Below, one piece after another: positions 20,678 through 50,161 of a DNA stretch of 64,000 nucleotides (within the stretch, counting starts at the first letter, position 1; every line of letters starts with the position of its first letter). The notes below the pieces were generated by a model. It searched no databases. It saw only the letters and a list, made by a program, of their open reading frames with translations, and had not been told where the DNA came from. Source of the stretch: Cyanobacteria bacterium auto_48_18. GTDB lineage: Bacteria > Cyanobacteriota > Vampirovibrionia > Obscuribacterales > Obscuribacteraceae. Made by a program: the position numbers and the translations under genes. Where the stretch lies: assembly GCA_036170915.1 (NCBI GenBank), contig JAVHQC010000035.1:256001-320000 (forward strand), in the 5' to 3' direction.

Positions 20678-20784
20678 AAGTTTCCAATTTTTTGATTCCT
20701 TATCGAGTCGAGTCTTCTCATTTTTTGACATCAATAATTTGTTTAACAGTGCCACGAAAATACTGCCCAACGTCAAACTCTTCA

Positions 20785-27648: not shown

Positions 27649-28321
27649 CGCTTCTTAATCTATAGCCAAAACCATAAACAGTCTCTATCACTTGCTCGCT
27701 TACGCCGACAGCAGCAATTTTCTTTCGCAATGTTTTTATATGCGTCTTGATTGTTTCTCTTCCCCCGACAGATTCTGGAGACCAGAGTTTATGGAGAAGT
27801 TCCTCGCCTCTGAAAATAGCTGTTGGATTATGTGCAAAATGCATGAGGAGTCGATACTCTGTCGGTGTCACGTCTATGACATTTCCCAGATAGGTTACGA
27901 GACAAGAAACTGTGTTTATTTGCAGGGGGCCACATGAGATTACTGATGAACGGCTGTGGGCGACTGAGCGTCGAAATAGCGCACGTACTCTTGCAGACAA
28001 CTCGTCCAAGTCGAATGGCTTTGTCACAAAGTCATCAGCACCACAATCTAACCCGACAACCTTGTCCACTTTGCCGGATCTAGCAGTGAGCATCAAAATT
28101 GCGCAAGAATTGCCGCTCTCTCGTAGCTGCTTGCAAACGCTAAAACCACTTAGCTTTGGAAGCATAAGATCAAGCAGAACAACATCATACTGACCTGCTT
28201 TAGCCATTTCGAGCCCTTGCAAACCATCATGAGCAACGTCAACCACATAATTTTGATGTTGCAATTCTTCCTTAAGTGGAACAGCTATGCGCTTATCGTC
28301 TTCAACTATTAGGATCTTCAT
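27641..28321 (-). CDS. OmpR/PhoB family response regulator
   Basis: MKILIVEDD, LLDLMLP, GADDFVTKPF and ETVYGFGY; start placed at ATG 28321. Confidence 0.95.
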   Translation of the reverse strand: MKILIVEDDKRIAVPLKEELQHQNYVVDVAHDGLQGLEMAKAGQYDVVLLDLMLPKLSGFSVCKQLRESGNSCAILMLTARSGKVDKVVGLDCGADDFVTKPFDLDELSARVRALFRRSVAHSRSSVISCGPLQINTVSCLVTYLGNVIDVTPTEYRLLMHFAHNPTAIFRGEELLHKLWSPESVGGRETIKTHIKTLRKKIAAVGVSEQVIETVYGFGYRLRSDV

Positions 28322-28347
28322 GTAGCTCGTCAATTACGTATTCGTCG

Positions 28348-28384
28348 AGTTTAAGGCAGGGCAGGTGAAGATCTGGTGAAGATC
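28348..28384 (-). promoter_or_regulatory. OmpR-type direct-repeat box with -10 element for the two-component/RND operon
   Basis: Minus strand GATCTTCACC-A-GATCTTCACC (perfect 10-mer at 11-bp period), then 10 bp, then TAAACT. Confidence 0.7.
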
Positions 28385-28460
28385 GACATTATGGATGTCT
28401 TTAATTTGATTCTCGAGACTGCAAATTCACTAAAACATGCACACCTCGAACCTAGCAAAC

Positions 28461-29573
28461 TCAGATACGGCCTTCGTCCGGTCGTCTAAAAGTAGATACC
28501 GGAGCAGCAACTGGCGCAGAAACCGGTTGAAGTTCTGGTTGAGCTTCGGGGGCAGGTGCAACTACCGGAGCTACTGGAGCTACTGGAATTACTGGTGTTA
28601 TTGGAGCTTTTGGTACCAGAAGCAGTTTACCATCACCGGCGATACCACCACCAGAAACATTTAAACCGGCCATGCGGAAAGCATGATCGCGTCTATCTAA
28701 GCGACTAAAATCAATCAGCGGGTTGAGTAGTTCTTGAGCGAATCGAGCAAACTTCTCCGGCTCTACAATATCTGGGCCTTCAACCTGCAAGTCTTGCAAA
28801 ATAATCTTACTGTCGCCCACGAGCTCAGGGCGGGCAGTAATCTTAATAGGTACGCCAGATTCAATAGTGCCGCCCTTGGTGACAAGCACTGCTTCTAAAA
28901 TAATTTTGTCGCCTACAATTTGCACTTTAGGATTAAGCGGTTCAAGCTGCTCTCCACCCAGGCCGGGCAAGTCTAACTTCAGACCACTGAGTGACGCGGT
29001 TAAGCGAGGGCTCTTAAGCGACTGAGCCAATTGCTCTTGATTTATGTTAGCGCTAATAAGCATCATAGTTGGTGCCTTAAAACCAGGGCGCTCGCCATTT
29101 TTCTTATTTCGATAATTGACCCAAATCGGATTCTGCGAAGCCATTTTCACCTGACCAAGCTTCATGCCTTTCATCTCAGGATCATCTACTTGCACTGCCA
29201 CAGATTTGACTTTACCGGCAATTAAATCAGTCAGGCTGTACGTTTTGACTTTTACTTTGACCTTGCCACCAGTTTTTTTGCGCACTGCAGCTTTGGCCAC
29301 CTGGCTAGCCACCACTTCAGTGACAAAGTTGATACCGGTAACGGTTTGCAGGGTGCGAGAAAACTTTGAGCCGATTTTAAAAGTAGGTTTTGGTGTGGCT
29401 GTCTTAATTTCAGGCCTCTCAGCATGAATCAGTGAGTTTGCTGAATCTGCTGACTTTCCTGAATCAGCTGACTTGGCCGATGCGTCTAAAGCTGCCTGCT
29501 CGGCCTGAGCACTGGGCATCATGGCCAAAAGTGTGAGAGCAATTAAAATTTTGATGTTAGTTGATTTCGGCAA
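28461..29573 (-). CDS. Exported DUF2993/LmeA-like phospholipid-binding protein with a Pro/Val/Ala-rich tail
   Basis: Signal peptide (AQA), DLIAGKVKSVAV and INQEQLAQSLKSP segments typical of DUF2993. Confidence 0.65.
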   Translation of the reverse strand: MPKSTNIKILIALTLLAMMPSAQAEQAALDASAKSADSGKSADSANSLIHAERPEIKTATPKPTFKIGSKFSRTLQTVTGINFVTEVVASQVAKAAVRKKTGGKVKVKVKTYSLTDLIAGKVKSVAVQVDDPEMKGMKLGQVKMASQNPIWVNYRNKKNGERPGFKAPTMMLISANINQEQLAQSLKSPRLTASLSGLKLDLPGLGGEQLEPLNPKVQIVGDKIILEAVLVTKGGTIESGVPIKITARPELVGDSKIILQDLQVEGPDIVEPEKFARFAQELLNPLIDFSRLDRRDHAFRMAGLNVSGGGIAGDGKLLLVPKAPITPVIPVAPVAPVVAPAPEAQPELQPVSAPVAAPVSTFRRPDEGRI

Positions 29574-29665
29574 AATGTCACCAACAGGCAGAAACAGGCG
29601 TGTTTATATCTACGCCACCGGCTGCACTATAGCAAAACCGCAAAACCATTACCAAGAGGAAGATT

Positions 29666-30538
29666 TTAAAGGTTGTGTGGCGGCTGAGGTTGCTGCGGCT
29701 GTTGTGGCGGTTGCGGCGGATTCATTTTATTCTGCAAAGCATCTTTGAGCATTTCGTTCTGGCGCAAGAGCGCCTTCAAGTGTTCATTGGCTATAGCCAA
29801 CTCAGCCTGCAGCTCAGCTACAGTTTGCTCGTGCGAGACACCAGTCACAGGGTCACGTCCGGGCATCTTAGGCAGCAGCACATAACCCAATTGAACAGCC
29901 TTCAATGCCGCCGCAGTTCGCGTAGGCACTTTGAGCTTGGCCAGAATGCACTCAATATGTTTTTCTACTGTGCGCAGCTTCATGTCGAGCTCTTCGGCAA
30001 TTTCTTTGTTGCGCAAATCAAGACGAATCAGCACTTCAATCTCTCTATCGGTGAGATTGCAGTTAGGCATATTTGTAGTCGGGGCTTGCTTAACCAGTTG
30101 CGTAATCTTGGGATCGCAATAAGGCAAACCACGTGTAATTTGTTCGATAGCTTCAAAGAGTGTGCGCGGTCCTGAGCTCTTGAGGCAAAATCCGCGGGCG
30201 CCGGCGCGCATCAGTTGATTGTGATATTTAGTGGCATGGTAAGAATCGGTCAGTACCAGCACATTGGCATTAGGCAGTTCCATGCTGACTCTGCGGCATA
30301 CTTCCACGCCATTGAGAACGTCCAGATCAACATCGAGAATGACAAAATCTGGCCTTAATCTGCGAATCATTTCAGTGGCGGCCATACCATCGGCAGCCTC
30401 ACCGACAATCTCTACAACTTCAGAAACTACTCGTTTGAGACCAAAACGAATTAATTCGTGTCTCTCACAGAGCACTGTTCGAGGCCGAAAAATTGAGGGT
30501 CTTTGCGTTGAATCCAAGAGTGTCTCCCGTCTATCCAT
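29666..30538 (-). CDS. NarL/LuxR family response regulator with a C-terminal coiled-coil and Q/P tail
   Basis: Receiver domain (RPDFVILDVDL, GFCLKS) and LuxR HTH (LTDREIEVL...NKEIAEEL...RTVEKHIECILAKL); divergent from the TPR-rpoB-like operon. Confidence 0.9.
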   Translation of the reverse strand: MDRRETLLDSTQRPSIFRPRTVLCERHELIRFGLKRVVSEVVEIVGEAADGMAATEMIRRLRPDFVILDVDLDVLNGVEVCRRVSMELPNANVLVLTDSYHATKYHNQLMRAGARGFCLKSSGPRTLFEAIEQITRGLPYCDPKITQLVKQAPTTNMPNCNLTDREIEVLIRLDLRNKEIAEELDMKLRTVEKHIECILAKLKVPTRTAAALKAVQLGYVLLPKMPGRDPVTGVSHEQTVAELQAELAIANEHLKALLRQNEMLKDALQNKMNPPQPPQQPQQPQPPHNL

Positions 30539-31065
30539 CTGCCCTTTGAGAACTCCATGGCTTCGCCTATTGCAGCTCGGAATTATTGTAACAGCGTGGG
30601 CAGTCCTGTCACCATCAGGGCAGTAACTTCTTTATATACCCTATATTCTCTACGATCTAATCCTTTACTCATTTGAACGAACCCTGAGCCCCTGGGCCTT
30701 TGCGGGCGGATGGAGAAACTCACTCCACAACTATCAATGATGAAAAGGGGCATTATCAGACGCCACCAGCGATAACGCGCAAACACACCGCATATTCAGC
30801 ATATATCATCTGCAACATACTTCTGCCGGACGAGCAGAATTTTGTCTTCGCCAGCAAAATAATCTATATGGGCGCTCAAGAGATAAACTAGTAGTATCTT
30901 TCTGCTTCGCGCTAGCTAAAGCAGCTGTGTTTGGGGGAATCTTACGAGAAGCATGGGAAAAATCCCAGTAGCAGGCTATTCTTTAAATGGTTAAGCTGAC
31001 CTCATAATATTTATTCCAGGCACTGATAAATGGCCACAGACCGGCGTTCTTGAATTTTCAAAGAA

Positions 31066-33174
31066 GTGATGACAACTACAGGATTTAAAATCGAAAAAAA
31101 ATTTCGCGACCTGGTAATTACAACTGGCCTTGTATTTTCCATCGCCCCTATTGTCTCGCTGACAACAGCCGCCCCCGCCCAGGCCACCAAACTCAACGCC
31201 GCACCGCTTCCCCATCGTGGAGAAGCTAATTCTGACAACCAGAATAATTGGGGCAGGCCTACCAAAAACTTTTCACAGTCGCCCGAGCGCACAGCCTTGC
31301 CTCCATCTATGTGGGAGGGAAGGCGACCTGATTATCGCGATGAAGAAAAGCGTAAAAAACTGGAAGAAGCTGCCAATGCCGTCAAAGCAGCTGCAGAAGC
31401 GAAAAAAGCACAAGAAGCTGTCAGGCGTGCAGAACTTGACCGCATTAATGCCGGCAAGCAATATCAACAAACCGCCATCGATGCCAATAATCGAGGTGTG
31501 GCTCTTGGCCGTCAGGGTCGCATGAATGAAGCGATTGCGCAGCATGAGCTGGCTTGCAAATATGATCCCGGCAACAAGATGTTTCGCACTAACCTGACCA
31601 GCGCCCGCACCATTTATGGTCAGCAGCGCATGGCGCAAAAGGATTATACGGGAGCCGCTCACCTTTTTCGCAAAGCACTGACCGCCGCTCAAGACAATTC
31701 GCTGGCGGCAAAATTATTGAATGAATCAATTCAAAAAACCGGCCTTGATCCCACACTTTCTGATAATCGTGTGGGAATAGGCGATCAGTTAGCGGCATCA
31801 GGTGATCTTGATGGCGCCATGATTGAGTATCAGCAAGCCATGCAGCTTGACCCCAGCGCCCGAACCTACGTCAAAATGGGCGATATGATGTTGCGTTATG
31901 GCCAGGCACCAAATGCTTTAAGCTGGTATCGCAACGCTGTGGTTAAAGATACAAACTATGGCCCGGCTCACAGGCAGCTCGGCATGATGTATATGATGCA
32001 GAAAGATTATGCCTCCGCGGCAGCGTCTTTGCGAAAAGCGGTAATTCTTGATTCGAAAGATGCGGCAGCTGGTCAGGCTTTAATTGATATCTGGCGCAAA
32101 CAGGTCTCTATCAATCCTGAGCTGGCTGAAAATCACCTTGGCCTGGCTGGTGCCTTTCAGCTCACAGGCGATTTTCAATCGGCCGCCGGTGAATATTTGC
32201 AAGTTGAACAGCTTGACCCGGGCAACGCAAGACTGGCTCCAGGGCGAGAAAGTTTGCAGAGGGCAATGAAGCATACAACAGCCGAAAAACACCGAGCTGC
32301 TGCCGAAGTATTTATCAGTCAGGGTCTGGCCCGCGACGCTCTGGCTGAAATTAGTCAGGCTGTCACTGTCGAACCGCGCAATGCCCGCTATCAATTTTTA
32401 ATGGGCGAAGCATTAGAAAGCGGCGGAGATGTTCAAGGGGCATTGCGAGCCTATCACACTTCAGTTTTGATCGACCCTGAAAACAACCAGGAAGCAGCAG
32501 CAAGAATGCGCGATTTGCAATCAAAGATCAATGCTGGTGCCGGTTCTAACAATAGTAATGCTGGCGCCAACAACCCAGCTAATAAAAGAAGTGCTCGCAC
32601 TCTTTATGAAGGCGTGCCGCCTCAATCTAATAGTAATGCTAGTGGCGGTGGTGGTGGCGCAGCAATAAGAGAAGCCAGGCAAGAAACACCGTTTACCGGC
32701 AGCTTCCGCACTCACGACGAGTCCGGAAACCCTGTACAGATGACTAATCCAGGTGTAGGTGCCGGCGCAGGTCAGCGAACCGAAAACGCAGTCCCTCAAT
32801 CATCTCCACCACCACAAGCCCGTGCTGAGAGGCCGGCCCCTGCCAATGATAAACAGACTCGCGACAGCCAAACTACAGCTACGCTTAAAGCCTGCGATGA
32901 AATGGAAATGCGCCGAGATTTTCAGGGCGCTGCCAATTTATTGCGAGAAGCACTCTCCAATAATTTGCAAAATGCTGACATTCACCACCGCCTCGGTCTG
33001 AATTTACTCAGTTCAGGTCAACTTTCCGAGTCTGTCTCTGAGCTGCGCATTGCCAGCGCGCTTTCGCCCAGCAACAAAGTATTTGTGGCTGACCTGGCTA
33101 GAGCACTGAATATACACAAACGTTCTCTTTCATCTGATTCAGATCACGTGCAAGGAGCCAATCCCGCTCAATGA
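31066..33174 (+). CDS. Exported multi-TPR protein, 702 aa
   Basis: Signal-like N-terminus ending APAQA, many TPR repeats (ANNRGVAL, AHRQLGMM, NHLGLAGA, IHHRLGLN) and a low-complexity linker. Its stop overlaps the next start (ATGA). Confidence 0.88.
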   Translation: MMTTTGFKIEKKFRDLVITTGLVFSIAPIVSLTTAAPAQATKLNAAPLPHRGEANSDNQNNWGRPTKNFSQSPERTALPPSMWEGRRPDYRDEEKRKKLEEAANAVKAAAEAKKAQEAVRRAELDRINAGKQYQQTAIDANNRGVALGRQGRMNEAIAQHELACKYDPGNKMFRTNLTSARTIYGQQRMAQKDYTGAAHLFRKALTAAQDNSLAAKLLNESIQKTGLDPTLSDNRVGIGDQLAASGDLDGAMIEYQQAMQLDPSARTYVKMGDMMLRYGQAPNALSWYRNAVVKDTNYGPAHRQLGMMYMMQKDYASAAASLRKAVILDSKDAAAGQALIDIWRKQVSINPELAENHLGLAGAFQLTGDFQSAAGEYLQVEQLDPGNARLAPGRESLQRAMKHTTAEKHRAAAEVFISQGLARDALAEISQAVTVEPRNARYQFLMGEALESGGDVQGALRAYHTSVLIDPENNQEAAARMRDLQSKINAGAGSNNSNAGANNPANKRSARTLYEGVPPQSNSNASGGGGGAAIREARQETPFTGSFRTHDESGNPVQMTNPGVGAGAGQRTENAVPQSSPPPQARAERPAPANDKQTRDSQTTATLKACDEMEMRRDFQGAANLLREALSNNLQNADIHHRLGLNLLSSGQLSESVSELRIASALSPSNKVFVADLARALNIHKRSLSSDSDHVQGANPAQ

Positions 33175-36100
33175 GTTTTTATTTTCAGGCACCAGACTTA
33201 GCTGAATTTCCACGTCGCTCTTACAGGCGTTTCCTGGAAGAAACCATCGGCAATTTATTTTCCGAAATTTCGCCTGTAGCGAGTGAATATTCCGCTCGCT
33301 TCGAACTCACTTTCATTGGCCCAGACGGTAAAGTGCACTGGCGTTTTGAAGATTATGCGCCTGATTCGGGCTATCCGACGTCGCCTGAACAAGCTCGCAA
33401 ATCAAACATGACGCACTCTAAACGCATGATGATGGAAGTGTGGTTGCGCGATACCTTGACCGGCGAATTGCGCAAATCAACCGCTTACGTAACCGACGTA
33501 CCGGTGATTACAGACCGTGGTACTTTTGTTATTAACGGCTCTGAGCGCGTGGTGTTAGGTCAACTGGTGCGCGCCCCGGGCGTCTATTTCAGCCAGGGTG
33601 GTCAGACCAGCTACAAAGCGCTTTTGCTGGCAGAAATGGGTGCACCCATTGCTTTTGAATTAGAACTCGACGCTAGCGGTGGCAAAACCAGCCGGGCAAA
33701 ATGCCGCATCAAATTACCTAAAAGAAGTTGGGTAGCTGCCACCACAGTACTAGCGGCGATGGGCGTCGACGCCCAAGATTTGCAAAAACGCATCGGTAGT
33801 TTGCTCGAACGCAATCGCATCGACTTTAAACCATTAACTCAAACTGAAGCATTAGCCGTTGTTGGCCGCTCGTGGAAACCTGATGGTGGTGGTGGCGCAT
33901 CTGGTGGCGCTACTGCCCTGAAAGAATTGACTGACAGGCGCCGCTATTCCCTGGGCACTCTCGGTCGCAAACGTGTCAACGCCAAACTAGGTATTGAAGA
34001 ACTATCACAGCAACTGAGTGCCGACGACATTCTGGCAGCAGTGGAATATTTACTCGGCTTACCGCTGGACATGGGCCGCACCGATAATATCGACAGTTTA
34101 GAAAATCGCCACTTGCGTGGTGTAGGCGAAACTCTCACAAAGGCTGTGAGGCCAGCACTCGGCCAAATGACCCGCTCTATTCGCACGCGCCTTGAGATGA
34201 ATGAAGATGAAGAAATAGGCTCACCTAACGAGTTGCTCGATATTCGCCCCTTCTCAAATGCGCTCAATAAATATTTTGTCGGCAACCCTCTGGTACAGTA
34301 TCTCGACCAACAAAACCCGCTCTCAGAGCTATCTCACAGGCGCAGAATCACGTCATTCGGACCAGGTGGTATCGACCCCAATGCAGCACCTGTAGAAATG
34401 CGCGACGTGCACCCGTCTCAAATTGGTCGCGTTTGCCTGGTAGAGTCTCCCGAAGGTAAGAATTGCGGCATGGTCTCTTATATGGCCACTTACTGCCGTA
34501 TTGACGACGACGGTTTCATGACTGTGCCCTATAGAAAAGTATTCAATGGCCTGGTATCAGATGAGGTGCAATTCCTCACCCCAGCTGATGACAAACGCTT
34601 TACTCTGGCACCACCTGATACCAAGGTGGTTGAAAACAAAATTTCAGGTCCGATGGTGGCGGCCAGGCGGGGCGAGAACTTCATTGAAGTAACACCCGAA
34701 GAAGTAGACATGATCGGTATTGCCCCGCAAGGCTTCATATCGGTAGGCTCCGGGCTGATTCCTTTCTTAGAACACGACGACGCCAACCGCGCCCTCATGG
34801 GTGGTGGCATGATGCGCCAAACTCTGCCTCTGATTCGGCCAGAGCGGCCGCGAGTAGGCACAGGTATGGAGCGTATCGTTGCTCGCTCCAGCGGACATTC
34901 CATTATTGCCAGACGAGCAGGAACGGTGACGAAAGTAACCGGCCGAGAAATTGTGGTGGCACAGTCGTCCGGCGAATCACGTTCTTATAATTTGACTAGA
35001 TTTGATCGCACCAATCAGAACACCATTTTAGACCAGAGACCGTCGGTGCAGGTAGGACAGCAGGTAGAAACAGGTCAAATTATTGCTGACGGACCAGCCA
35101 TTGACTCTGGCGAACTGGCTCTGGGACGCAATCTATTGATTGCTTTCATGCCCTGGTATGGCTATAACTTTGAAGACGCTATTGTGGTGCGTGAGGGCCT
35201 GGTAAAAGATCAAAAACTAACCCACATTGAAATTGAGAAACATTCTTGCGGCGTGCACCAAACTTTGCGTGGCCCAGAAATTCTTACCCCTGAACTGCCT
35301 AACGTCACAGCTAAAGATCTTGAGCACCTGGATGACCGCGGCATCGCGAAAATCGGCTGTTATGTGAATCCTGGCGATATTCTTGTGGCAAAATTATCAC
35401 CTAAAGAGGCTAAAGCTCTTTCAGCTGAAGAAGAATTGCTGCAAGCAATTTTCGGCAAAGTGGCTGAAGAAATGGGTGATACCAGTTTGCGTGTGCCGCA
35501 CGGCTCAGGTGGCCGAGTGATTGACGTGCGCATTTTCACACCAGAGACCACCCCTGAACTGAAGGCCGGTATCATCTGCGATATCGAAGTCTTAATCGCC
35601 CGCATGTGCCCTGTTGAAGTGGGCGACAAATTAGCTGGACGCCACGGCAATAAAGGTATTGTTTCAATTATCGTGCCCGATTGCGACATGCCCTTCATGC
35701 CCGACGGTACGCCTGTAGATATCTGTCTAAACGCCCTCGGTGTTCCCAGCCGTATGAATGTAGGCCAGGTTTTCGATACTCAACTTGGATATTACGCCAG
35801 CATTCTCAACCGCTACTACCGCATTCACCAGTTTGACGAATCGATTGCACCAGATGCATCATTCAGACTGGTTACAGACGCTCTTAAAGAAGTGCGCAAA
35901 GTGCCAGGCTATGAATGGATGGGTGAAGACGGCAAAGTAGTCTTGACTGACGGCCGCACTGGCGAGAGATTTGACCGCCCTGTGCTGGTAGGTCGGCAGT
36001 ATATGCTCAAATTAAATCAGCTGGTTCTGCACAAAATTAATGCTCGCTCTGGTTTGGGTGGCCCGTATGCCGCAGTCACACAGCAACCGGTGGGCGGAAA

Positions 36101-37004
36101 AGCCAATCATGGCGGCCAGCGTATGGGAGAAATGGAAGTCTGGGGCATTCAAGCCTATGGCGCGGCCAATATTCTGCACGAAATGATGACCATTAAGGCT
36201 GACGACATTCAAGGCAGGCACCAGTCATATGCTGACATGGTGCAAGGCAACCCACTTACGCCAGGTGGTCGCACAGCCGCTTTTGACGGTCTCTGCTGCG
36301 AAATTCGCGGCCTTGGCATGGAGATGACCCTGGGCAAGGTAATTGACTCCTTCGAACCCATTGAAGACCGCTCCTGCGCAGTACCAAATGGGACTTCTAC
36401 GAAAACTCTGGAAGAGAAATATCAGGTCTCATCAGTACAGCAAATGGAGAATAACGAAGGCCAGAAAGTGCTGGAGATCCCTGCTGGGGACTTCGTTCCG
36501 GTCTCCAAGCCACCCGCCTTACCGATCATAACTTCGATGACTAGCGGAAAACACGGTGGGAAACCACGTATTGAAATGTCCCAGGAACCGTTGTTTGATG
36601 ACATAGACGAAAGCGCGCAGGCGCCAGGTGATTCTTCCGCCACCGACGATTTCATCGAAAGGCTATTAAGAGAAGAAGAAGAGGAAGAGCGAAAAGCAAA
36701 GGAAACCAAAGACGGTCCGGCAAACTATCTGGCAGAAGTTCTCACCAGGGAATTAGGTGCGCAATCACCACTCAAAACTTTCCCCTCACTGAGCGAACTG
36801 TCCACACTAGCCCAACAGCTGGTGCTTGTTTCTCAAAAAGATAGCCACCCGCAAACTAATCTAGACGACCAAATCAGCGAACTTAGCGAATTCACAGAGC
36901 TAAGCGGCTACTTCAAAAAAGCAGCACAAAAAACCACAAGTTCAACTTCAACCTTAAATACAACTGAATCGCAAGCGATTCACCAAGAAGACGACTCAAG
37001 TTAA
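33171..37004 (+). CDS. rpoB: Divergent DNA-directed RNA polymerase subunit beta paralog with an acidic C-terminal extension of about 220 aa
   Basis: Colinear RpoB motifs: GTFVINGSERV, DQQNPLSELSHRRR, RDVHPS, PFLEHDDANRALMG, GELALG, MPWYGYNFEDAI, GDKLAGRHGNKG, GVPSRMNVGQ and GGQRMGEMEVW. Many normally invariant positions are substituted and no rpoC is adjacent, so the symbol marks homology only, not necessarily the housekeeping copy. Confidence 0.93.
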   Translation: MSFYFQAPDLAEFPRRSYRRFLEETIGNLFSEISPVASEYSARFELTFIGPDGKVHWRFEDYAPDSGYPTSPEQARKSNMTHSKRMMMEVWLRDTLTGELRKSTAYVTDVPVITDRGTFVINGSERVVLGQLVRAPGVYFSQGGQTSYKALLLAEMGAPIAFELELDASGGKTSRAKCRIKLPKRSWVAATTVLAAMGVDAQDLQKRIGSLLERNRIDFKPLTQTEALAVVGRSWKPDGGGGASGGATALKELTDRRRYSLGTLGRKRVNAKLGIEELSQQLSADDILAAVEYLLGLPLDMGRTDNIDSLENRHLRGVGETLTKAVRPALGQMTRSIRTRLEMNEDEEIGSPNELLDIRPFSNALNKYFVGNPLVQYLDQQNPLSELSHRRRITSFGPGGIDPNAAPVEMRDVHPSQIGRVCLVESPEGKNCGMVSYMATYCRIDDDGFMTVPYRKVFNGLVSDEVQFLTPADDKRFTLAPPDTKVVENKISGPMVAARRGENFIEVTPEEVDMIGIAPQGFISVGSGLIPFLEHDDANRALMGGGMMRQTLPLIRPERPRVGTGMERIVARSSGHSIIARRAGTVTKVTGREIVVAQSSGESRSYNLTRFDRTNQNTILDQRPSVQVGQQVETGQIIADGPAIDSGELALGRNLLIAFMPWYGYNFEDAIVVREGLVKDQKLTHIEIEKHSCGVHQTLRGPEILTPELPNVTAKDLEHLDDRGIAKIGCYVNPGDILVAKLSPKEAKALSAEEELLQAIFGKVAEEMGDTSLRVPHGSGGRVIDVRIFTPETTPELKAGIICDIEVLIARMCPVEVGDKLAGRHGNKGIVSIIVPDCDMPFMPDGTPVDICLNALGVPSRMNVGQVFDTQLGYYASILNRYYRIHQFDESIAPDASFRLVTDALKEVRKVPGYEWMGEDGKVVLTDGRTGERFDRPVLVGRQYMLKLNQLVLHKINARSGLGGPYAAVTQQPVGGKANHGGQRMGEMEVWGIQAYGAANILHEMMTIKADDIQGRHQSYADMVQGNPLTPGGRTAAFDGLCCEIRGLGMEMTLGKVIDSFEPIEDRSCAVPNGTSTKTLEEKYQVSSVQQMENNEGQKVLEIPAGDFVPVSKPPALPIITSMTSGKHGGKPRIEMSQEPLFDDIDESAQAPGDSSATDDFIERLLREEEEEERKAKETKDGPANYLAEVLTRELGAQSPLKTFPSLSELSTLAQQLVLVSQKDSHPQTNLDDQISELSEFTELSGYFKKAAQKTTSSTSTLNTTESQAIHQEDDSS

Positions 37005-37014
37005 ATAGAGCAGG

Positions 37015-37971
37015 ATGAAAACCATGACAGGCGCCGGGAAAAGTCAGCTAAACAGCAAAAGCAGTTTCTGCTTGACCAACCTTCTAAGCGCCTTTTTGTT
37101 TGCTGCAGTGATTGCCCTCACTTCATCAGTCAGTGCTCAAGCCCAGTTTGGTGGCGCTCAACCACCACCCGTAGGTGACGGCAGCACTCCTGCCCCGGTC
37201 ACCCCTGGCGATACTTCTGGTGGTGCCGCCGCTCCGTCGAACAGCGCTGATGCAGGCCCCGGCACAAACAATGCCATCGGCACAGGCCGCGACCGCACTG
37301 TGGTTCGCATATTCAAGCAATCGGCAGGTCGTGGCGCACGCATGGTGCAAACTTTGCGCCCTGATACTCTTTCTGATGAAGCTAGAGCCAGAATCGACGG
37401 CATTCTCGGTATCAACATGTTGTCCGGCGAACAAGCCATCGACATCACCGCTACCGATGCCCAGATTGAACAAATTCAAGAAGCGCTGGCAGCTTATCCA
37501 CAGACCAGTAACAATGCCGGCCGCAAGACTATTACTGGTGACAATCCAGCTGCTGGTTATCCAAGGCCAGGCCGCAACAGCATTTATCGCTTCGATAATC
37601 AGTTGCCTACAGTGGCCACCTTCTCTCGTTATTTAGTTATTTTAGGCGTAGTCTCGGCCACAGTATTTATGGCTCTAGCAGCCTATTCTGTGGTGATGGG
37701 TAACCCTTATGGTGGTGCCAGGGTAATTGGCGCAGCATCTGGTTTGCTCTTCTTAATGGCCGCTTACACAATCTGGAAAATTGTCACCATGAATACTTTC
37801 GGTGCCAATTCACCAGACACTGCTAGAGCTCAAAATCGAACTCAGCAAGGTCTTGTACAAGACGCCTTCATGACCAGGCCGCTCACGCCGGTGACACCTA
37901 ACGGTGGTGTCAATGGTGGTGCTGCCAGAGGCGGAGTGCCGGTGCAACCATTCGGCAACGCAGGCAACTAG
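37015..37971 (+). CDS. Exported/membrane protein with a C-terminal VirB2/TrbC (T4SS pilin)-like two-helix domain
   Basis: Signal-like segment ending AQA, low-complexity linker, then YLVILGVVSATVFMALAAYSVVMGNPYGGARVIGAASGLLFLMAAYTIWKIV. Confidence 0.55.
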   Translation: MKTMTGAGKSQLNSKSSFCLTNLLSAFLFAAVIALTSSVSAQAQFGGAQPPPVGDGSTPAPVTPGDTSGGAAAPSNSADAGPGTNNAIGTGRDRTVVRIFKQSAGRGARMVQTLRPDTLSDEARARIDGILGINMLSGEQAIDITATDAQIEQIQEALAAYPQTSNNAGRKTITGDNPAAGYPRPGRNSIYRFDNQLPTVATFSRYLVILGVVSATVFMALAAYSVVMGNPYGGARVIGAASGLLFLMAAYTIWKIVTMNTFGANSPDTARAQNRTQQGLVQDAFMTRPLTPVTPNGGVNGGAARGGVPVQPFGNAGN

Positions 37972-38007
37972 TTTTAGATCGAATCATTTAAAAGGACCCG
38001 GAAGAAA

Positions 38008-38715
38008 GTGAAAAGAGTGGACACCACAAAACTGTTGAAGAGATTGAATATCTCTCTGATAGTGGCCGCCCTAGCCGGCGTGCAAGTGGCAAGCGCTCAA
38101 CCTAAAAATGAATTTTTCGGCGGCAATTCCAGCACTCCTGCACAAAAAGGTTATTCCAATTTTCAGGGTCCTGCGCCAAAAGGTCCGGCCAACGGTGTCA
38201 CCGCCAAAGGTGCCGGAGCGATGGATTCTGACGCGAGCCCAGAGCTAACCTGGTTTGAAAAATTCGATGGCATTAGTTATCACGGCCGACCTACCGACTC
38301 TGAAAGAATCATTTTGAACATGCCCTTTAACCAGGAGGCAGAGCGTGTACAAAGATGGACAGCAGCTGCAAGTGCTGTTGCTAAAAGATATCGCGAAACT
38401 TCGAAAGCGCTGAAGACTCTACACGCACCTCGCGGAAGAGCTGATTTGGATGATCTCTGTTATGCACGAATTAACTGGTTTAACGATGCAGCTTTAGTTT
38501 ACGAGGAGATGATTCGGCCAAGAAATCCTGCTCAAACCATTGAAGAATTGAACGACCAGTTAAGACAGGTGAAAGACCAAGCTGGTGCACTAAAAAATCA
38601 AAATGTGACAATCTTGGCCTCTGACCGAAAATTGAGGCGATTTTATCGAGTTCATGCACCAAAAGAAACCGACGCCCTTACCGGATACATCAACGGCCAA
38701 TACAAAAAGAATTAG
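38008..38715 (+). CDS. Exported helical hypothetical protein
   Basis: GTG start with AAGGA RBS, signal peptide ending ASA, helical C-terminal domain. Confidence 0.75.
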   Translation: MKRVDTTKLLKRLNISLIVAALAGVQVASAQPKNEFFGGNSSTPAQKGYSNFQGPAPKGPANGVTAKGAGAMDSDASPELTWFEKFDGISYHGRPTDSERIILNMPFNQEAERVQRWTAAASAVAKRYRETSKALKTLHAPRGRADLDDLCYARINWFNDAALVYEEMIRPRNPAQTIEELNDQLRQVKDQAGALKNQNVTILASDRKLRRFYRVHAPKETDALTGYINGQYKKN

Positions 38716-38798
38716 ATCACAGTTACGCAGCTAGCTACCCCACGTCCAAGCACCGCAGACCACAGCAAACCACCCCAAAACATCCGAGGACCTCTTAA

Positions 38799-39560
38799 AT
38801 GGCTATTCAGTTAAATGACAGAGACCATCTTATTTTCAAACTAATTGATGAGCATGAGGTCTTACTTGAGAAACATATTTCGTGGTTTATTGCTGGTGAA
38901 GAAAAACCAGTCTTGATTAGAGATCGGCTGCGCAAGCTCTTCTATCTTGATTATTTGCTTTGTCATCGTCATGGCAGCAAATTGCCATGGTGGACAACTC
39001 CCACCAAGCCACTGGTTTACATGCTCTCTCCTTTAACGAGAACCATCGCTGGTGCTCCTGAAGCAGACGACACCATGCTCGATAATGAGTTCCAACGGCA
39101 CCACCTCGAGGTCGCCAATCTGCGCATGCTTTACCTGGTTGCACAAAAAGACGGCCAAATAAGTGCATTTCAGTGGACAACTTGTAAGCAAGCCAAAAAC
39201 GCTGAAACAGGACTTGACGCCAAAGTCGAATTTCGCAATGGCACATCGACAACCAAAGTCGGTCTGGTCAACAATCTCGCCCTTGACCAAGCAAGTATCA
39301 CCAAACTGACTCAATCTCTCGCCACTGAAGAAATCGATTCATTGCTGCTTATCTCTCGTGATGACCTGGCGCAAAAAGCATTGCAACAACTGGTTGCTCA
39401 AGCTGGCGGAGAACTGGCCAAACGGGCATTGTTCTCGACTCACCAGGAGTTATATAGAGACGGCATTGTCGCTACCCGCTGGCAATCAGTAGCCGGCGCT
39501 GCAACGCTTAAGCCAGAAGTTGCATATATAGGAACGATGGCTCAGCCGATTGCCGTATAG
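38799..39560 (+). CDS. Replication-relaxation (Replic_Relax)-like wHTH plus degenerate nuclease-fold protein
   Basis: QLNDRDHLIFKLIDEH...IRDRLRKLFYLDYL...PLVYML...HHLEVANL...GLDAKV follows the Replic_Relax pattern, but the expected acidic ExD motif is missing. Confidence 0.55.
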   Translation: MAIQLNDRDHLIFKLIDEHEVLLEKHISWFIAGEEKPVLIRDRLRKLFYLDYLLCHRHGSKLPWWTTPTKPLVYMLSPLTRTIAGAPEADDTMLDNEFQRHHLEVANLRMLYLVAQKDGQISAFQWTTCKQAKNAETGLDAKVEFRNGTSTTKVGLVNNLALDQASITKLTQSLATEEIDSLLLISRDDLAQKALQQLVAQAGGELAKRALFSTHQELYRDGIVATRWQSVAGAATLKPEVAYIGTMAQPIAV

Positions 39561-39636
39561 CCTATTTATAGATGGCCTGAGATTTAATCTAACGCCAAGA
39601 ACATTAAGCAGGGCTCATTTAAACTGAACAACAAAA

Positions 39637-39723
39637 GCTGTGGGAGAAGGCTAGCATGGGGATGCTGGCCTTCGTGCTTAGGCCTTAGCCTGGCGGCTTC
39701 CAGGCTGAGTGCTTATTGACAGC
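39637..39723 (+). other. Twin GC-rich hairpins in an intergenic leader (candidate structured RNA)
   Basis: GAAGGCTAGCAT/ATGCTGGCCTTC and CTTAGCCTGG/CCAGGCTGAG stems, each with one G-U pair and each ending at or followed by GTGCTTA. Confidence 0.55.
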
Positions 39724-39802
39724 AGAGATGGGGAATACTAGGATTAGATTATTAGTAGCATTTAAGCAAAGCAATAGTTTTGTGCAGGCTGGGGGTTGAA
39801 GC

Positions 39803-41866
39803 ATGACTAAAAATCAGAGAAATCTGATCAAACGCAGGCAACGAGGCAATATGCTCGTCTTTGCCACTGCCATAACGGTCTTTCTTGTGGCCGTTCTAGC
39901 CTTCTTCAGTCTCGGTTATGTGAGACTGCTGGGCAGCAATAGCGAACAACGAAACGCGATTGAAGCGGCGTCGCTAGCAGCTGCTCGAGATTTGAGCATG
40001 ATCGCAGTAGATACCGATGAGTATGGTTGGGTCTCAGTATCCGACGCGGCACCAACAGGCTCGGTAACCACAGCCAATGATGCGTACAACGTGCCAGTCA
40101 GAGGCATTAACAGCATCATCGGTACAATTCGCCTCGACTTAATTATTGCCAATGAGCTGGCCGATGCCAATCTCAAACAAATTATCAAAGCTGATTTAGT
40201 CAAGGCTAAAGCAGCCCAAGCCAAATTAGCTACTGAACTGAAAAAAGCAATTGTGCCAGGCTATATAGCCAAAGACATTAACAATCAAAATATCAACGTA
40301 TACAAAGATGCGGAAGATGCTTATACCGCTAATCAAATTCGCATGACCGGCTCGTCTAACTATGTCAAAAATTCCCTCAAGCTGTCTCTGGGCAGTATCG
40401 CCAATGGTGGTGGCGTCACCAACACTCCGCTGCCCCGCCCCATTTCCAAAGCCAGCGTTCCAAGCGGCGGATCGCAGAATAATTTTTACCGCTCATACTT
40501 CAATCAGACTTTCGACGGAGAAGATTTTGTCTTCGCCGGCATTGGTGATGCCATCAAACTGATTGATGTAAAAAACTGGACCCCCTCTGTAGCCTCACTG
40601 CCATATCAGATGCAGACTGTTGTTAAAGCTGAGGCCGACCAACAAATGAATAATGGTCAAAGTGGACAGACTTATACCATTCATGCCATCGCATGCGCCC
40701 AGCCTGCCAACGTGGCTGATCCAAAACCAGCACCTGGTGCACTAAGCTTCAGCTTCCCAGACGGCATACCACCTGAAATTACAAAGCCCATAGATATGTT
40801 TACCGATGCTCAACTGAACAGTGGTAATAACTGCAATGTGCAAACTTCCAAAAATGGTGACTATCCAATTGGCAAACCCACCACACAAATCGTCGATATT
40901 ACCTGGCCATATCCTTCTCTAGCTGAGAGCACTGGTAATGTCTTCCGTCTAGCCCTGTTCGACTGGTGGAAAAGAGCCGGGACTAAACTGAACATTGATT
41001 CGGCAGTAACGATGATGACCGACCCCAAATACAATTTCAACACTCCGGTGCCGGACAAAATCGATTGGAAAACTCCTGCCAAACTCGGCGACAAAACCAT
41101 CTACAACTTGGGTCCTATCCCCAACGGCAACATCCATATTTATCGAATTGATCCTGCCAGTGGTCAAATCAGCTATCAAGACAAATCACTAGCTCCAGTG
41201 CAATATAGTGTGGCCGGCAACCAACAACTGTATTCAGAGAATATTGACGCTATCACAAAAAGCAAAGTTGGTACTCAGACTGTAGGACCATTCGAGTTTC
41301 CTAATACCGGCTATCTCGTTGATACGGTTTATTTGAAGCCAGTCTATGACGTTTATATACGTGACCAGGTACATCAACCTGGCAAAGCGCTGGGAGGTGA
41401 CCACGCCGGAGAGCCGATGGATTATCCGCTAGTTTCGCAAGCCACCACCGGCAGAGATCTAGGTGGTGCCGGATTTGGTGCAGCTAAGCCACCACCCATT
41501 GACCAAAGGGCCAAGGGTTTGCCTCCAGCAATCACTAACCAGTCAGACTTCGCTGAAACCGCTGGTTTCCCTATGAATTCGAGCTTTTACAATAACTACT
41601 CAGCTGGCCCTGGTGTGAAAAATATGCGGCCTACTTATCAGAAAAACGGTATGGCTGTTGATGTTCGCTTTAGAAGGCAGGTTGATACAGGCACGTTCAA
41701 AGATAGTCTCGGTTTTAGCATAGGCTATGTAGGCGAAAAATATCCGCCTGGCACACCGGCGATGACTGGCATTCCGTATGTGCCACCACCCCCACCTACA
41801 CCACCTGTTCCAGATCCGGCAGCGCCAGCTGATCCAGCAGCGCCACCGGCAACACCGACACCATAA
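39803..41866 (+). CDS. TadG-like (Tad domain) large pseudopilin/adhesin, 687 aa, with a Pro-rich tail
   Basis: Basic leader RRQRG followed by a hydrophobic helix, then QRNAIEAASLAAARDL, matching the Tad/TadG QxAxDAAALAAA motif. Confidence 0.75.
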   Translation: MTKNQRNLIKRRQRGNMLVFATAITVFLVAVLAFFSLGYVRLLGSNSEQRNAIEAASLAAARDLSMIAVDTDEYGWVSVSDAAPTGSVTTANDAYNVPVRGINSIIGTIRLDLIIANELADANLKQIIKADLVKAKAAQAKLATELKKAIVPGYIAKDINNQNINVYKDAEDAYTANQIRMTGSSNYVKNSLKLSLGSIANGGGVTNTPLPRPISKASVPSGGSQNNFYRSYFNQTFDGEDFVFAGIGDAIKLIDVKNWTPSVASLPYQMQTVVKAEADQQMNNGQSGQTYTIHAIACAQPANVADPKPAPGALSFSFPDGIPPEITKPIDMFTDAQLNSGNNCNVQTSKNGDYPIGKPTTQIVDITWPYPSLAESTGNVFRLALFDWWKRAGTKLNIDSAVTMMTDPKYNFNTPVPDKIDWKTPAKLGDKTIYNLGPIPNGNIHIYRIDPASGQISYQDKSLAPVQYSVAGNQQLYSENIDAITKSKVGTQTVGPFEFPNTGYLVDTVYLKPVYDVYIRDQVHQPGKALGGDHAGEPMDYPLVSQATTGRDLGGAGFGAAKPPPIDQRAKGLPPAITNQSDFAETAGFPMNSSFYNNYSAGPGVKNMRPTYQKNGMAVDVRFRRQVDTGTFKDSLGFSIGYVGEKYPPGTPAMTGIPYVPPPPPTPPVPDPAAPADPAAPPATPTP

Positions 41867-41877
41867 CAAGTTCGCCT

Positions 41878-42426
41878 CTAGGGCATTGAAGAGCCACCAG
41901 TCTTATTGACGGGTGGCTTTTCTAATTCTCCACTTAAGTCTTTCTGTACTTCCTGTACTTTTTGTACTTCCTTTACTTCTTGCTCCACAGTTGGTCCGGT
42001 CAAGGCTTTGACAGTTTGAATGCGCAGCATGCGTGAGCCGCCGAGATCACCAACCCATCCAGTCACTGTTACTTTTTCGCCCACGTAAGGCAACAATAAT
42101 TCCTGGCAACCTTTAAACCCTCTGTACTTTGCCGCGATAAATAAAATATTGGTGCCATCTTCCAAAATACCGACACTGACACCACCATGAATGCAATTGA
42201 GTGCGCACGCCCTATGACCAGGTCCGCGGCCCGGGCCCATGGTTTGCGAAGCATAACACCAGGCGTCCACCACTTCACCAGTAATGGTGACAGGCTTAAT
42301 TGTAGCCACCGTTTTAGTCGGCCGATAATGGGGGCGTTTCCATAAATAAACTAATCCTGATGCCAGAATTACAATCACAAGCAGTGAGAGAATTATTCTC
42401 AAATTTCTATCAGAAATTTTCGTCAT
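41878..42426 (-). CDS. Membrane-anchored hypothetical protein with a Cys/His cluster and OB-fold-like region
   Basis: N-terminal TM; ITGEVVDAWCY...GPGHRACALNCIHGG...YVGEKVTVTG. Confidence 0.7.
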   Translation of the reverse strand: MTKISDRNLRIILSLLVIVILASGLVYLWKRPHYRPTKTVATIKPVTITGEVVDAWCYASQTMGPGRGPGHRACALNCIHGGVSVGILEDGTNILFIAAKYRGFKGCQELLLPYVGEKVTVTGWVGDLGGSRMLRIQTVKALTGPTVEQEVKEVQKVQEVQKDLSGELEKPPVNKTGGSSMP

Positions 42427-42440
42427 TTAACTCCCGCACT

Positions 42441-43604
42441 TTATTTAGACTTAGCAGCCATTTTCTTTTCCAAGTCTTTGAGACTGTTAGCAATCTCTCG
42501 ATCTTTTTTCTCTACATCTAAGGCGCTGGCTCGTTTATACGCTGCAAGCGCACCTTTGAAATCTTTGCGATGGCGCTCGAGATCTTGGCCAAGTCGCATA
42601 TGGCCTCGCGCAAACTTTTCATTCAACCTTAAGCCATCCTGATATTGCTTGATGGCCTGCTCACGCATTTCTTTGCGGTCATAAACGTCACCAAGAGCAA
42701 AATGCAATCTTGCTTTGATATCCTTTCCACTGAGGCGATTTTCAGCAGCAGCAATAATGGGGCCAGCGTCAGGGGGGAGCTGGCCAAGCAAATTAGTGCT
42801 GCGAATTTTAGCCGATTCCATTTCTTTACCCGCACCATTGGCAAGCAGGCAGAGAGCCACTTCCAGTGCTTTAGCTTTTTTGCCTCTGGCTGCCAGTGTG
42901 GTGGCATACAATTTATTGCTGGGAAAATTCGCGGGATCGCTGACAAAGTTTTTGTCTAATTCAACTAAGGCTTCATCAACTCTCTTAAGGGCCAGTAGCA
43001 CTTTTGCTTTCTCGTAAATACTAAGTACATTGGGTTTGCTCAATTTTTCAAAGCGCTGAATTTCCAACAAGGCCTGATCTGGTTTTTGCATAGCTGCAAG
43101 AACGTCGGCCATGGCCAGACAAATTTGGGCGTCACCAGGTTTAGCCGCTCTTGCTCGTTGATACATATTGAGCGCCGCTGACAGCTTATTTTGATTATGC
43201 AAAACATAACCGGCCGTAAGCAGCATGCCGTAGTCGTTAGGAAAAAGCCTCAGACCATCAGTAGCCGCTTTTTCGGCTTTTGGATAGTCACTGGAGCGCA
43301 GAGCTAATTGAGCTAGTCTTTTGTAGCCGTCAGGTCGACTGGAGGGAAATGACACTGCCTTTTTGTATTCTTCTTGGGCCTCGCTATAAAATCCGCGTGA
43401 CTCATACAAACGCCCGGCCGCGTAATGAGCCTCATAACTCTTGGGTTGTTTTTTTAAAAGCTCGGCTACTTGAGTCTCAGTAGGAATATCAGGTTTCCCA
43501 CTGCTGGTAGCAGCAGGGCCAGCCAGGGCAGCCGGCCATGAAGAATTTAAACAGACAGCCAAACAAAAAACTGCTTGTCGCCAGATATTTTTTTGATTGA
43601 ACAT
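42441..43604 (-). CDS. Exported TPR protein
   Basis: Signal peptide ending ALA; TPR repeats AHYAAGRLY, LHFALGDVY and GHMRLGQD. Confidence 0.88.
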   Translation of the reverse strand: MFNQKNIWRQAVFCLAVCLNSSWPAALAGPAATSSGKPDIPTETQVAELLKKQPKSYEAHYAAGRLYESRGFYSEAQEEYKKAVSFPSSRPDGYKRLAQLALRSSDYPKAEKAATDGLRLFPNDYGMLLTAGYVLHNQNKLSAALNMYQRARAAKPGDAQICLAMADVLAAMQKPDQALLEIQRFEKLSKPNVLSIYEKAKVLLALKRVDEALVELDKNFVSDPANFPSNKLYATTLAARGKKAKALEVALCLLANGAGKEMESAKIRSTNLLGQLPPDAGPIIAAAENRLSGKDIKARLHFALGDVYDRKEMREQAIKQYQDGLRLNEKFARGHMRLGQDLERHRKDFKGALAAYKRASALDVEKKDREIANSLKDLEKKMAAKSK

Positions 43605-43610
43605 GGTGCC

Positions 43611-44189: not shown

Positions 44190-44234
44190 TTGTTCCTTTC
44201 GGTTCCGTTCAGTTCAGTAGCAGTATTCGCTGGT

Positions 44235-46511: not shown

Positions 46512-46836
46512 CTTAAGGACCTCGCCTTTGGTTTAACCGTAAGCACCACTTATATGGATGCAAGTTAGTAATTCTTCCCAAGCCGTAACAGCCTGAGTTT
46601 ATACTGTTTGTTCAACACTCAAACGGCACAGAGAAGCTGAAGAGCGCGTTTGGCCTGATTATTATAGCAGTTTAATAATCTTTGACAAGAAAAATTTGCT
46701 TCATCTAGCCAGTTTTATGGTAAGAGCCCCACGTAAGACGGGCAACTATAGGCGATCGAGACAATAAAACGTTGCACGGTAGCCAGATAGGGGCATAATC
46801 TATCGTAGTAAGTTTAGTGACGGATTAGATCGACTT

Positions 46837-47358: not shown

Positions 47359-47375
47359 AATAGCCAGGTGCACCA

Positions 47376-47819: not shown

Positions 47820-47833
47820 CTTGACCCGCCAGT

Positions 47834-48286: not shown

Positions 48287-48296
48287 TAATCTCTCC

Positions 48297-50160: not shown

Positions 50161-50161
50161 A

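Follow-up and report, generated by a model that had tools for sequence, protein, structure and literature searches.

The window analyzed here is a stretch of 64,000 nucleotides (nt) from Cyanobacteria bacterium auto_48_18 (assembly GCA_036170915.1, contig JAVHQC010000035.1, positions 256,001 to 320,000 of the forward strand), a member of the Obscuribacteraceae in the class Vampirovibrionia. Near its middle, at 33171-37004 on the plus strand, lies a gene for a homolog of the beta subunit of RNA polymerase (RpoB), here called RpoB2, which sits within a tight cluster of genes, several of them for exported or membrane proteins. The features at this locus are as follows, where aa stands for amino acids, bp for base pairs, TPR for tetratricopeptide repeat, and HTH for helix-turn-helix.

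29666..30538, minus strand: LuxR/NarL-type response regulator, 290 aa, divergently transcribed (Pfam Response_reg and GerE)
30935..31000, plus strand: conserved non-coding block, the putative operon promoter and operator (alignment of 10 intergenic regions)
31066..33174, plus strand: exported TPR protein, 702 aa (TPR families; N-terminal signal)
33171..37004, plus strand: RpoB2, 1277 aa; its core (residues 1-1070) is at 33171-36380 and its tail at 36381-37004
37015..37971, plus strand: membrane protein, 318 aa, starting 10 bp past the RpoB2 end (translation and alignment of 17 copies)
38008..38715, plus strand: exported protein, 235 aa, with a signal peptide, a disordered linker and a helical-bundle domain
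38799..39560, plus strand: cytoplasmic protein, 253 aa, with an HTH-like N-terminus and a predicted PD-(D/E)XK-type C-terminal fold
39684..39709, plus strand: terminator-like hairpin of 10 pairs (6 G-C), closing the five-gene unit (consensus scan only)
39716-39744: promoter-like site ahead of the next gene (consensus scan only)

An orphan rpoB paralog in a conserved cluster

RpoB2 is, as a first-pass annotation of the window had claimed, a full-length RpoB homolog. It passes the NCBIfam equivalog models for rpoB, with 1057 bits on NF001616 (cut-off 896) and 1012.8 bits on TIGR02013 (cut-off 801); Pfam Rpb2 domains 2, 3, 45, 6 and 7 score above their cut-offs, and domain 1 is weak (22.1 against 28.2). 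The housekeeping RpoB reaches 1613 bits on NF001616.

The host genome (39 contigs, 4.9 Mb, 86% complete) contains two matches to the RpoB catalytic domain. The second is on a different contig, C16, and is followed there by rpoC1 and rpoC2. The annotation had held that a canonical rpoB-rpoC locus should exist elsewhere in the genome if RpoB2 is a paralog; that it does exist favors the paralog. The two proteins are 43% identical over 1059 collinear residues. Thus, RpoB2 does not stand in the single-copy, rpoC-adjacent context, being a second copy in a genome whose canonical locus is on C16. Divergent versions of the other core subunits, which the annotation had thought might accompany it, did not appear; in this 86% complete genome, PF04997 and PF00623 (both domains of RpoC1) and PF01000 (alpha) have one match each, giving a single rpoC1 and a single rpoA. 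The base composition and codon bias of RpoB2 are host-like, and codon bias does not separate the two copies (effective number of codons 48.2 for RpoB2 and 50.3 for the housekeeping gene). RpoB2 is a genuine, diverged orphan paralog of rpoB, and neither an artefact nor a recent copy.

This has a practical side, of course. TIGR02013, which RpoB2 passes, is a single-copy marker model, and methods that rely on such markers may count a duplicate in this lineage; RpoB2 may add to the 1-7% "contamination" reported for genomes of the family. Public records label its relatives merely "DNA-directed RNA polymerase subunit beta". Some records of relatives of RpoB2 or of the 253-aa protein carry the names Planktothrix sp., Trichormus sp., Drouetiella sp. 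or Chroococcales ("MAG TPA"), which look like taxonomic mislabels of metagenome bins.

The genes of the cluster are closely packed. In the window, the ATG of RpoB2 and the stop codon of the TPR gene share the letters ATGA, and the next open reading frame (ORF) follows after a gap of 10 bp, both as first annotated. Over 20 loci, the gap between the TPR gene and RpoB2 is in every case 0 nt or less (15 ATGA overlaps, 3 one-base overlaps, and 2 cases where the genes are directly adjacent). Among the 19 related loci with flanking sequence, drawn from 14 genera, the TPR gene is directly upstream of RpoB2 in all, the genes for the 235-aa and 253-aa proteins are downstream in all, and the gene for the 318-aa protein is downstream in 18; two of the 19 loci come from single-contig genomes. 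Because the same gene order recurs in all 19 related loci, the arrangement is not a misassembly. Read-derived contigs agree on this point. Over 29500-35849 and 35828-40500, Logan contigs of run X1 show 0 differences from the window, X1 being the likely source sample and so not independent, and a contig from a different study (X2) spans the TPR-RpoB2 junction in a relative, with 273 differing letters in 3,428 bases.

Conserved synteny ends where the hairpin at 39684-39709 and the promoter-like site after it stand. Together these place the next gene, which encodes a 687-aa protein and starts at 39803, outside the unit. The first-pass annotation had called this gene "Tad-like" and the membrane protein at 37015-37971 "pilin-like", and had connected the cluster with a surface appendage. 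Family searches bear out none of this. The 687-aa protein (39803-41866) reaches 18.4 bits on PF13400, where the cut-off is 22.3, and the 318-aa protein has no match in Pfam, NCBIfam, PADLOC or PHROG. Neither has a match above cut-off to the pilin, TadE/G, CpaF or secretin families. A scan of 49 window ORFs against family libraries found no Tad ATPase, secretin or other Tad machinery, and no rpoC or ribosomal-protein gene; the absence of the last two is what the annotation had reported. The rest of the window is ordinary chromosome, with genes for seryl-tRNA synthetase, PdxS/PdxT, DnaB, an RND efflux pump and two-component systems.

Several smaller observations concern the surroundings. In the genus of the window, a stretch of about 11 kb (39803-50887), holding the weakly "Tad-like" 687-aa gene, a TPR gene and several family-less proteins, lies between the cluster and the genes that stand next to the cluster in other genera. 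Genome G048 has the 687-aa gene in two tandem copies (locus L017, 2988-5156 and 5321-7390). On the other side, what comes after the regulator in most related loci is a pair of genes, one LmeA-like (PF11209) and one with a Germane domain (PF10646); in the window, the region 20078-29573 has an RND pump, an adaptor, an outer-membrane factor and a histidine kinase/OmpR pair (20785-28333) between these two genes. Last, in locus L032 (G042:C2, 9005-14000), which comes from a genome of 3 contigs, the frame of RpoB2 is interrupted, leaving parts of 91 and 1100 aa; the 235-aa gene is likewise broken in two, the 253-aa gene is shorter than elsewhere, and no match to the 318-aa gene was found. Either the cluster is decaying there or the long-read assembly carries frameshift errors.

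Regulator, promoter block and partner proteins

The divergent gene upstream of the cluster encodes the response regulator. In the 17 related loci that hold it, it is 83-95% identical to the window copy, and its ratio of non-synonymous to synonymous change (dN/dS, or omega) is 0.024. At E<=1e-40, orthologs occur in 46 of 47 genomes sampled from the window's own family (f1; Obscuribacterales or Melainabacteria in public records), in 1 of 2 from the sister family (f2), and in none of 151 from nine other Vampirovibrionia families; the regulator is order-specific. Its receiver domain is atypical. Where two aspartates are usual, 17 of 18 copies have C-E and one has V-E; what we take to be the phospho-acceptor aspartate, the threonine and the lysine are kept. 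An atypical acidic pocket in all 18 copies suggests that the regulator may not depend on ordinary phosphorylation. After the HTH, the 18 copies share an unusually conserved coiled-coil tail, and PADLOC gives weak matches to CARF3 (best E 0.00014). The sister-family ortholog, in locus L095 (G003:C233, 9935-10780), is 81% identical by BLASTP; there, the divergent neighbor is an unrelated 238-aa gene and not the TPR-RpoB2 cluster, and the contig ends 0.8 kb past the regulator.

Between the regulator and the TPR gene stands the conserved block. Here, a palindrome, TGGGAAAAATCCCA, of the type GGGA-N5-CCCA, occupies 30954-30967 and abuts a -35-like hexamer (TAGCAG in the window, TAGAC-like), which is followed after 17 bases by a -10-like TAAGCT. 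The composite of palindrome and promoter is present in 17 of 20 loci and missing from L028, L032 and L034. The palindrome is the sole match in the window, where 0.31 would be expected, and the 18-base form has one match in the whole 4.9-Mb genome (a control pattern has 0). No Rfam family matches the leader block. The layout of the block suggests a dedicated activator site set directly against the operon promoter's -35 element; the block is probably that promoter together with the operator for the neighboring regulator.

The partner proteins themselves give few clues. The TPR protein has an N-terminal hydrophobic signal in 18 of 18 copies, followed in 17 of them (L029 being the exception) by an A-x-A|TK(L/M/F) mature end; it reads as exported, as the annotation had said. 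Besides its signal peptide, the 318-aa protein has a stretch rich in Pro and Gly, a small domain that is conserved and, close to its C-terminus, two transmembrane helices of strong conservation. The 235-aa protein matches no family, and its best hit in the ESM-Atlas scores 0.84. Its AlphaFold2 model (mean pLDDT 74, about 90 in the domain) finds only generic helical-bundle matches, the best with Z 10.3, which is below the informative level for helical folds.

The 253-aa protein is the only cytoplasmic partner. Its first ~75 residues are nearly invariant and HTH-like, and its C-terminal domain is modeled, with pLDDT ~90, as a restriction-endonuclease-like (PD-(D/E)XK) fold. Foldseek places BamHI first (E 3.5e-3, probability 0.99), and VIA-align places N.BspD6I first (Z 7.6, rmsd 5.5, 189 aligned residues), ahead of further nucleases of restriction or CRISPR-ancillary type. 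The residues that do not vary in the domain (E104, N158, H215 and Y219 in the same alignment, A1, that gives the N-terminal conservation) form no clear D...(D/E)xK triad. The first-pass annotation had called this protein "Replic_Relax-like". Pfam does not agree, there being no match to PF13814 at E<=10 for the window protein or any of 18 orthologs; a language-model search does, with Replic_Relax clusters in 17 of 30 ESM-Atlas look-alikes (score 0.94), which is a lead only. The phyletic pattern of the 253-aa protein is that of RpoB2 (46 of 47 genomes in the family, 0 of 2 in the sister family, 0 of 151 in the nine others). A profile search gave 295 matches, of which the 120 listed are all close orthologs, with Obscuribacterales or cyanobacterial names where names are given. 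Against PADLOC, nothing of note was found for the five operon proteins, the TPR protein alone giving a match at E 0.0075; against PHROGs, nothing informative was found beyond a cellular-type rpoB family for RpoB2.

Descent and constraint

RpoB2 is concentrated in one family. Long matches are present in 53 of 57 other genomes of that family, at 71-91% identity and beside a canonical copy at 43-47%; contig-end fragments occur in two more, and no RpoB2 was found in the remaining two, G017 (83% complete) and G030 (740 contigs). In the class sample already described, RpoB2 is present in 44 of 47 family genomes, in neither of the 2 from the sister family and in none of the 151 from nine other families. 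A further sister-family genome, G005, has a copy on a 4.5-kb contig that is sister to all family copies (87% by the SH-like approximate likelihood ratio test, SH-aLRT); either the gene predates the family or the contig was binned wrongly. Elsewhere in the phylum, 111 of 120 genomes have a match, none above 54% identity, and the full-length matches lie at 42-45%. A search of 5.8 billion proteins gave at least 103 clusters at 69-90% identity, after which the next matches drop to 48% or less; among the clusters listed, those with names are mostly Obscuribacter, Obscuribacterales or Melainabacteria. In a library clustered at 50% identity, a single full-length sequence (2070 bits) and one fragment stand for the whole RpoB2 group; the protein ranked after them has 792 bits and 42%.

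The paralogs are monophyletic (100%), and stand on a stem of 1.6 changes per site under LG+G4 and 3.6 under LG+C20. The annotation had expected a long-branch clade with conserved synteny, and this expectation was borne out for the clade and the TPR gene, and not for pilin or Tad genes. The order of branching within the clade follows that seen among the housekeeping copies of these genomes; on these trees, vertical descent of RpoB2 is evident. The split between the two copies dates back at least as far as an order.

Where the stem attaches depends on the model. The LG+G4 tree has the RpoB2 clade branching basal to all canonical RpoB of cyanobacteria; the site-heterogeneous model shifts it inside Vampirovibrionia (87%). 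In both trees, a strongly supported branch (98% and 100%, with 100% SH-aLRT in the LG+C20 tree) leaves it on the side of the Cyanobacteriota. Approximately unbiased (AU) tests, run like the mixture-model tree on a 32-row set, reject neither a position as sister to Obscuribacterales RpoB (p 0.175) nor one outside all canonical cyanobacterial RpoB (p 0.31). The best solved-structure match is likewise a cyanobacterial beta subunit (8syi_C, 8gzg_C), at 891 bits in one collinear stretch over query residues 5-1058. A cyanobacterial affinity is favored by these comparisons over a phage or plasmid one, which upholds that part of the annotation's case for a lineage-internal duplication; as to the point of attachment, the AU tests leave room for both positions. 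What is favored, rather than demonstrated, is that RpoB2 arose inside the lineage and then changed in a burst.

RpoB2 might also be a subunit derived from a mobile element or phage, or else a duplicate that is decaying or an artefact of assembly, and there are hints in the first direction. The last gene of the cluster encodes the nuclease-like fold with Replic_Relax look-alikes, a family typical of plasmids, and one PHROG family, phrog_24349 ("unknown function"), gives RpoB2 a match of 904 bits along most of its length. That family looks like a cellular rpoB that was entered into a phage collection; matches to RpoB2 in phage and plasmid records are all below 60% identity and near 40%, the level of any cellular rpoB. 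Against such an origin also stand the same chromosomal neighborhood in 19 of 19 loci from 14 genera, the congruence of the paralog tree with the housekeeping tree, the native composition and the lack of a PADLOC match. Against an artefact stand frames that are intact in nearly all genomes and the X2 contig across the TPR-RpoB2 junction. This explanation is, on balance, highly improbable.

Selection has held the RpoB2 core closely. Its mean identity to the window copy over 18 genomes is 81.9%, against 90.4% for housekeeping RpoB, or ~1.9 times more change. In seven of eight within-genus pairs, core dN is ~0.031, dS 1.8-2.9 and omega ~0.012-0.017, and in the eighth dS is not estimable; these omega values are rough, since within-genus dS is saturated (1.6-3.1, with no defined value for the TPR gene, for the 235-aa gene or in one of the RpoB2 pairs). 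Judged by these ratios, the core is under strong purifying selection. The annotation had set a dN/dS near 1 and a loss of synteny as findings that would refute its proposal; dN/dS is far below 1, and synteny is conserved in 19 of 19 loci. The C-terminal tail (36381-37004) behaves quite differently, being acidic, of low complexity and fast-evolving, with omega ~0.26. Its length is very variable, the open frames running from 1173 to 1620 aa; the ~70 residues just past the core are moderately conserved, as is a short DFPSLSEL motif.

Possible roles of RpoB2

RpoB2 has the domain order of cyanobacterial RpoB and no large lineage-specific insertions. Of 200 universal columns, defined as those at least 95% conserved in 75 canonical RpoBs (41 cyanobacterial, 34 others) and counted on a fast-mode MAFFT alignment, it keeps 171. 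Those kept include PFLEHDDANRALMG, GRHGNKG, GGQRxGEME and the LLxAIFG core of the flap tip, in which, by analogy with E. coli beta, we place the catalytic acidic pair, the lysine of the initiating site and the docking helix for sigma region 4. Such motifs would be pointless outside a working RNA polymerase, and their retention favors, as far as residues can tell, a swappable subunit over a repurposed protein.

The reading to which somewhat better than an even chance is given here is that RpoB2 is a conditionally made, alternative beta subunit, which joins the single beta-prime and the alpha of the cell. It fits best because the active-center and sigma-docking motifs are kept, omega is extremely low, there is a single beta-prime, and the cluster has its own putative switch. 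The mechanism would run as follows. The atypical LuxR-type regulator would fire the unique promoter upstream of the TPR gene, and the cell would then make RpoB2 together with three envelope proteins and one protein of DNA-binding type. RpoB2 would compete with housekeeping beta for the single beta-prime (RpoC1 plus RpoC2), alpha and omega, and the outcome would be a second form of the RNA polymerase core with an altered active-center periphery. That form would assemble on beta-prime and catalyze transcription under control of the regulator, and may differ in its behavior at promoters, in initiation or toward inhibitors.

Structure prediction was brought to bear on the assembly step, as the annotation had suggested. 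Residues 800-1070 of RpoB2, co-folded with host RpoC1, scored 0.87 in three runs, against 0.46 for the best of 3 controls; the 0.87 mark is reached by 116 of 157 solved complexes and by 2 of 215 mismatched pairs, counts that are rough here (own alignments). At least 96% of contacts are common to the runs, with a partner pLDDT of at least 85. The model supports binding to beta-prime, and is to be read as likeness, since complexes of this kind are already solved. At the predicted interface, the paralog consensus matches the canonical consensus at 61% of 90 positions, compared with 50% of the other 181.

Several observations weigh against a second working polymerase, of course. The remaining 29 of the 200 universal positions differ in RpoB2, 22 of them identically in all 19 paralogs, and several of the replacements are non-conservative and near the active center. 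The RER of the loop after GPGG, presumably fork loop 2, has become PNA; GSNMQRQ has become GGGMMRQ; DDKIHARS has become LHKINARS, with loss of what is presumably the initiating-site histidine of E. coli beta; and, near the C-terminus, PESF has become TAAF. Within residues 800-1070, changed universal positions number 9 of 41 inside the predicted RpoC1 interface and 2 of 41 outside it, which suggests that docking on beta-prime may be altered. Of the four co-transcribed partners, three are exported or lie in the membrane and are not known to have any connection with transcription. Last, no RpoB2 was found in the sister-family genomes G001 (94% complete) and G003 (88% complete), where the gene is either dispensable or unassembled.

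RpoB2 may instead have given up catalysis, to serve as a regulator or decoy that titrates, for example, beta-prime, sigma or a polymerase-binding factor, or as a nucleic-acid-binding scaffold tied to the envelope proteins. The loss of universal residues near the active center and the enrichment of changes on the predicted beta-prime face (the 9 of 41 against 2 of 41) speak for a repurposed, non-catalytic beta, as do its co-transcription and translational coupling with exported proteins and its long, acidic, fast tail with omega ~0.26. A decoy, however, would not need a whole active-center architecture, and RpoB2 keeps 171 of 200 universal residues, those of the catalytic-site motifs among them, with a core omega of ~0.015, as low as that of an essential enzyme. 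A repurposed beta is considered unlikely.

The fixed changes of RpoB2 are concentrated near the initiating site, the fork loop and the pockets for inhibitors. This raises another thought, that RpoB2 does form an active polymerase, which is retained for its insensitivity to an inhibitor of RNA polymerase that either competitors or the cell itself would produce. The stretches concerned are SQLSQFMDQT (NPLVQYLDQQ in RpoB2), CPVETPEGPN (CLVESPEGKN in RpoB2) and the NMQ that has become GMM, which presumably belong to the rifamycin pocket and the sites of initiating-site inhibitors. Actinomycetes offer precedents for immunity through a spare target, according to PMC5431353. Yet the substitutions that are the hallmark of those precedents are absent, the histidine of LSELSHRRR being kept and the serine changed to threonine. 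Divergence extends over the whole protein (43% identity), far beyond what resistance needs; the window contains no biosynthetic genes; and a spare target would leave the dedicated regulator and the fixed envelope partners unaccounted for. Immunity of this kind seems still less likely than a non-catalytic role.

The alternative-subunit reading can be put in fuller form. Obscuribacterales would then have two RNA polymerases, with beta-prime and alpha shared and beta different. The second would be ancient, its initiating-nucleotide site and fork loop remodeled; it would be made only when the regulator fires a promoter found once in the genome, and would act with the winged-helix/nuclease-fold partner in remodeling of the envelope. 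All these parts taken together are tentative, and the whole is given a little less than an even chance. In no reading are the co-transcribed envelope proteins accounted for, and they are the strangest part of the finding.

Comparison with known systems

In the textbook view, bacteria have a single RNA polymerase core; for beta, the exceptions known are the duplicates of actinomycetes. The features of RpoB2 hint at two forms of the gene-reading enzyme in these bacteria. If true, this would be a bacterial counterpart of the polymerase specialization of eukaryotes; RpoB2 makes the swapping of bacterial subunits testable as a route to a specialized polymerase, and offers natural variants of the rifamycin-pocket and initiating-site regions.

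Housekeeping cyanobacterial beta (8syi_C, 8gzg_C) is the nearest protein of solved structure. RpoB2 has the same order of domains and groups on the Cyanobacteriota side, and differs in not lying beside rpoC1 and rpoC2, in the replacement of 29 universal positions, and in its long stem.

In plants, NRPD2, the second-largest subunit of Pol IV and Pol V, is a paralog that belongs to a specialized polymerase. RpoB2 would be like it, an old, diverged paralog of beta type that would define a specialized polymerase whose other subunits are shared. In eukaryotes, however, duplication extends to the largest subunit and the function has been demonstrated; here, only beta is duplicated, and its role is putative. 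Francisella RNA polymerase has two divergent alpha subunits, which are thought to sit in the same enzyme. RpoB2 resembles these in that a core subunit has a duplicate which has diverged deeply and yet persists throughout a lineage; here, however, the duplicate is beta rather than alpha, and the Francisella alphas do not define alternative enzymes.

The closest comparison is with the second rpoB genes of actinomycetes, which are close copies of the first. The annotation had said as much, and had known of no described system with the arrangement seen here. In the literature searched, which did not extend to subscription journals and supplements, the paralog is undescribed and only the actinomycete duplicates turned up; the part of 10.1101/2020.02.28.969766 (journal version PMC8047818) that was available contains no description of it. 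For Nonomuraea rpoB(R)/rpoB(S) and Nocardia farcinica rpoB2, PMC5431353, in the part available, describes "wild-type" copies and "mutant-type" ones, the differences lying mainly in the rifampicin clusters, with substitutions of the His-to-Asn and Ser-to-Tyr types; that part holds no identity figure.

As in those actinomycetes, there is a second rpoB beside the housekeeping one, giving two possible forms of polymerase that share beta-prime; conditional use and changed global transcription are proposed in both cases (for the actinomycetes, in PMC5431353). Unlike them, RpoB2 is 43% identical to its counterpart over 1059 residues, the split being order-old or older; it is without the hallmark His-to-Asn change; and its gene is part of a cluster of five, fixed in composition, that also encodes envelope proteins and has a dedicated regulator. 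RpoB2 thus falls outside the actinomycete type as defined, yet may, by analogy, work in a similar way. A beta subunit that is only 43% identical, constrained family-wide, and placed in a fixed cluster with its own regulator is of a different order from the actinomycete duplicates.

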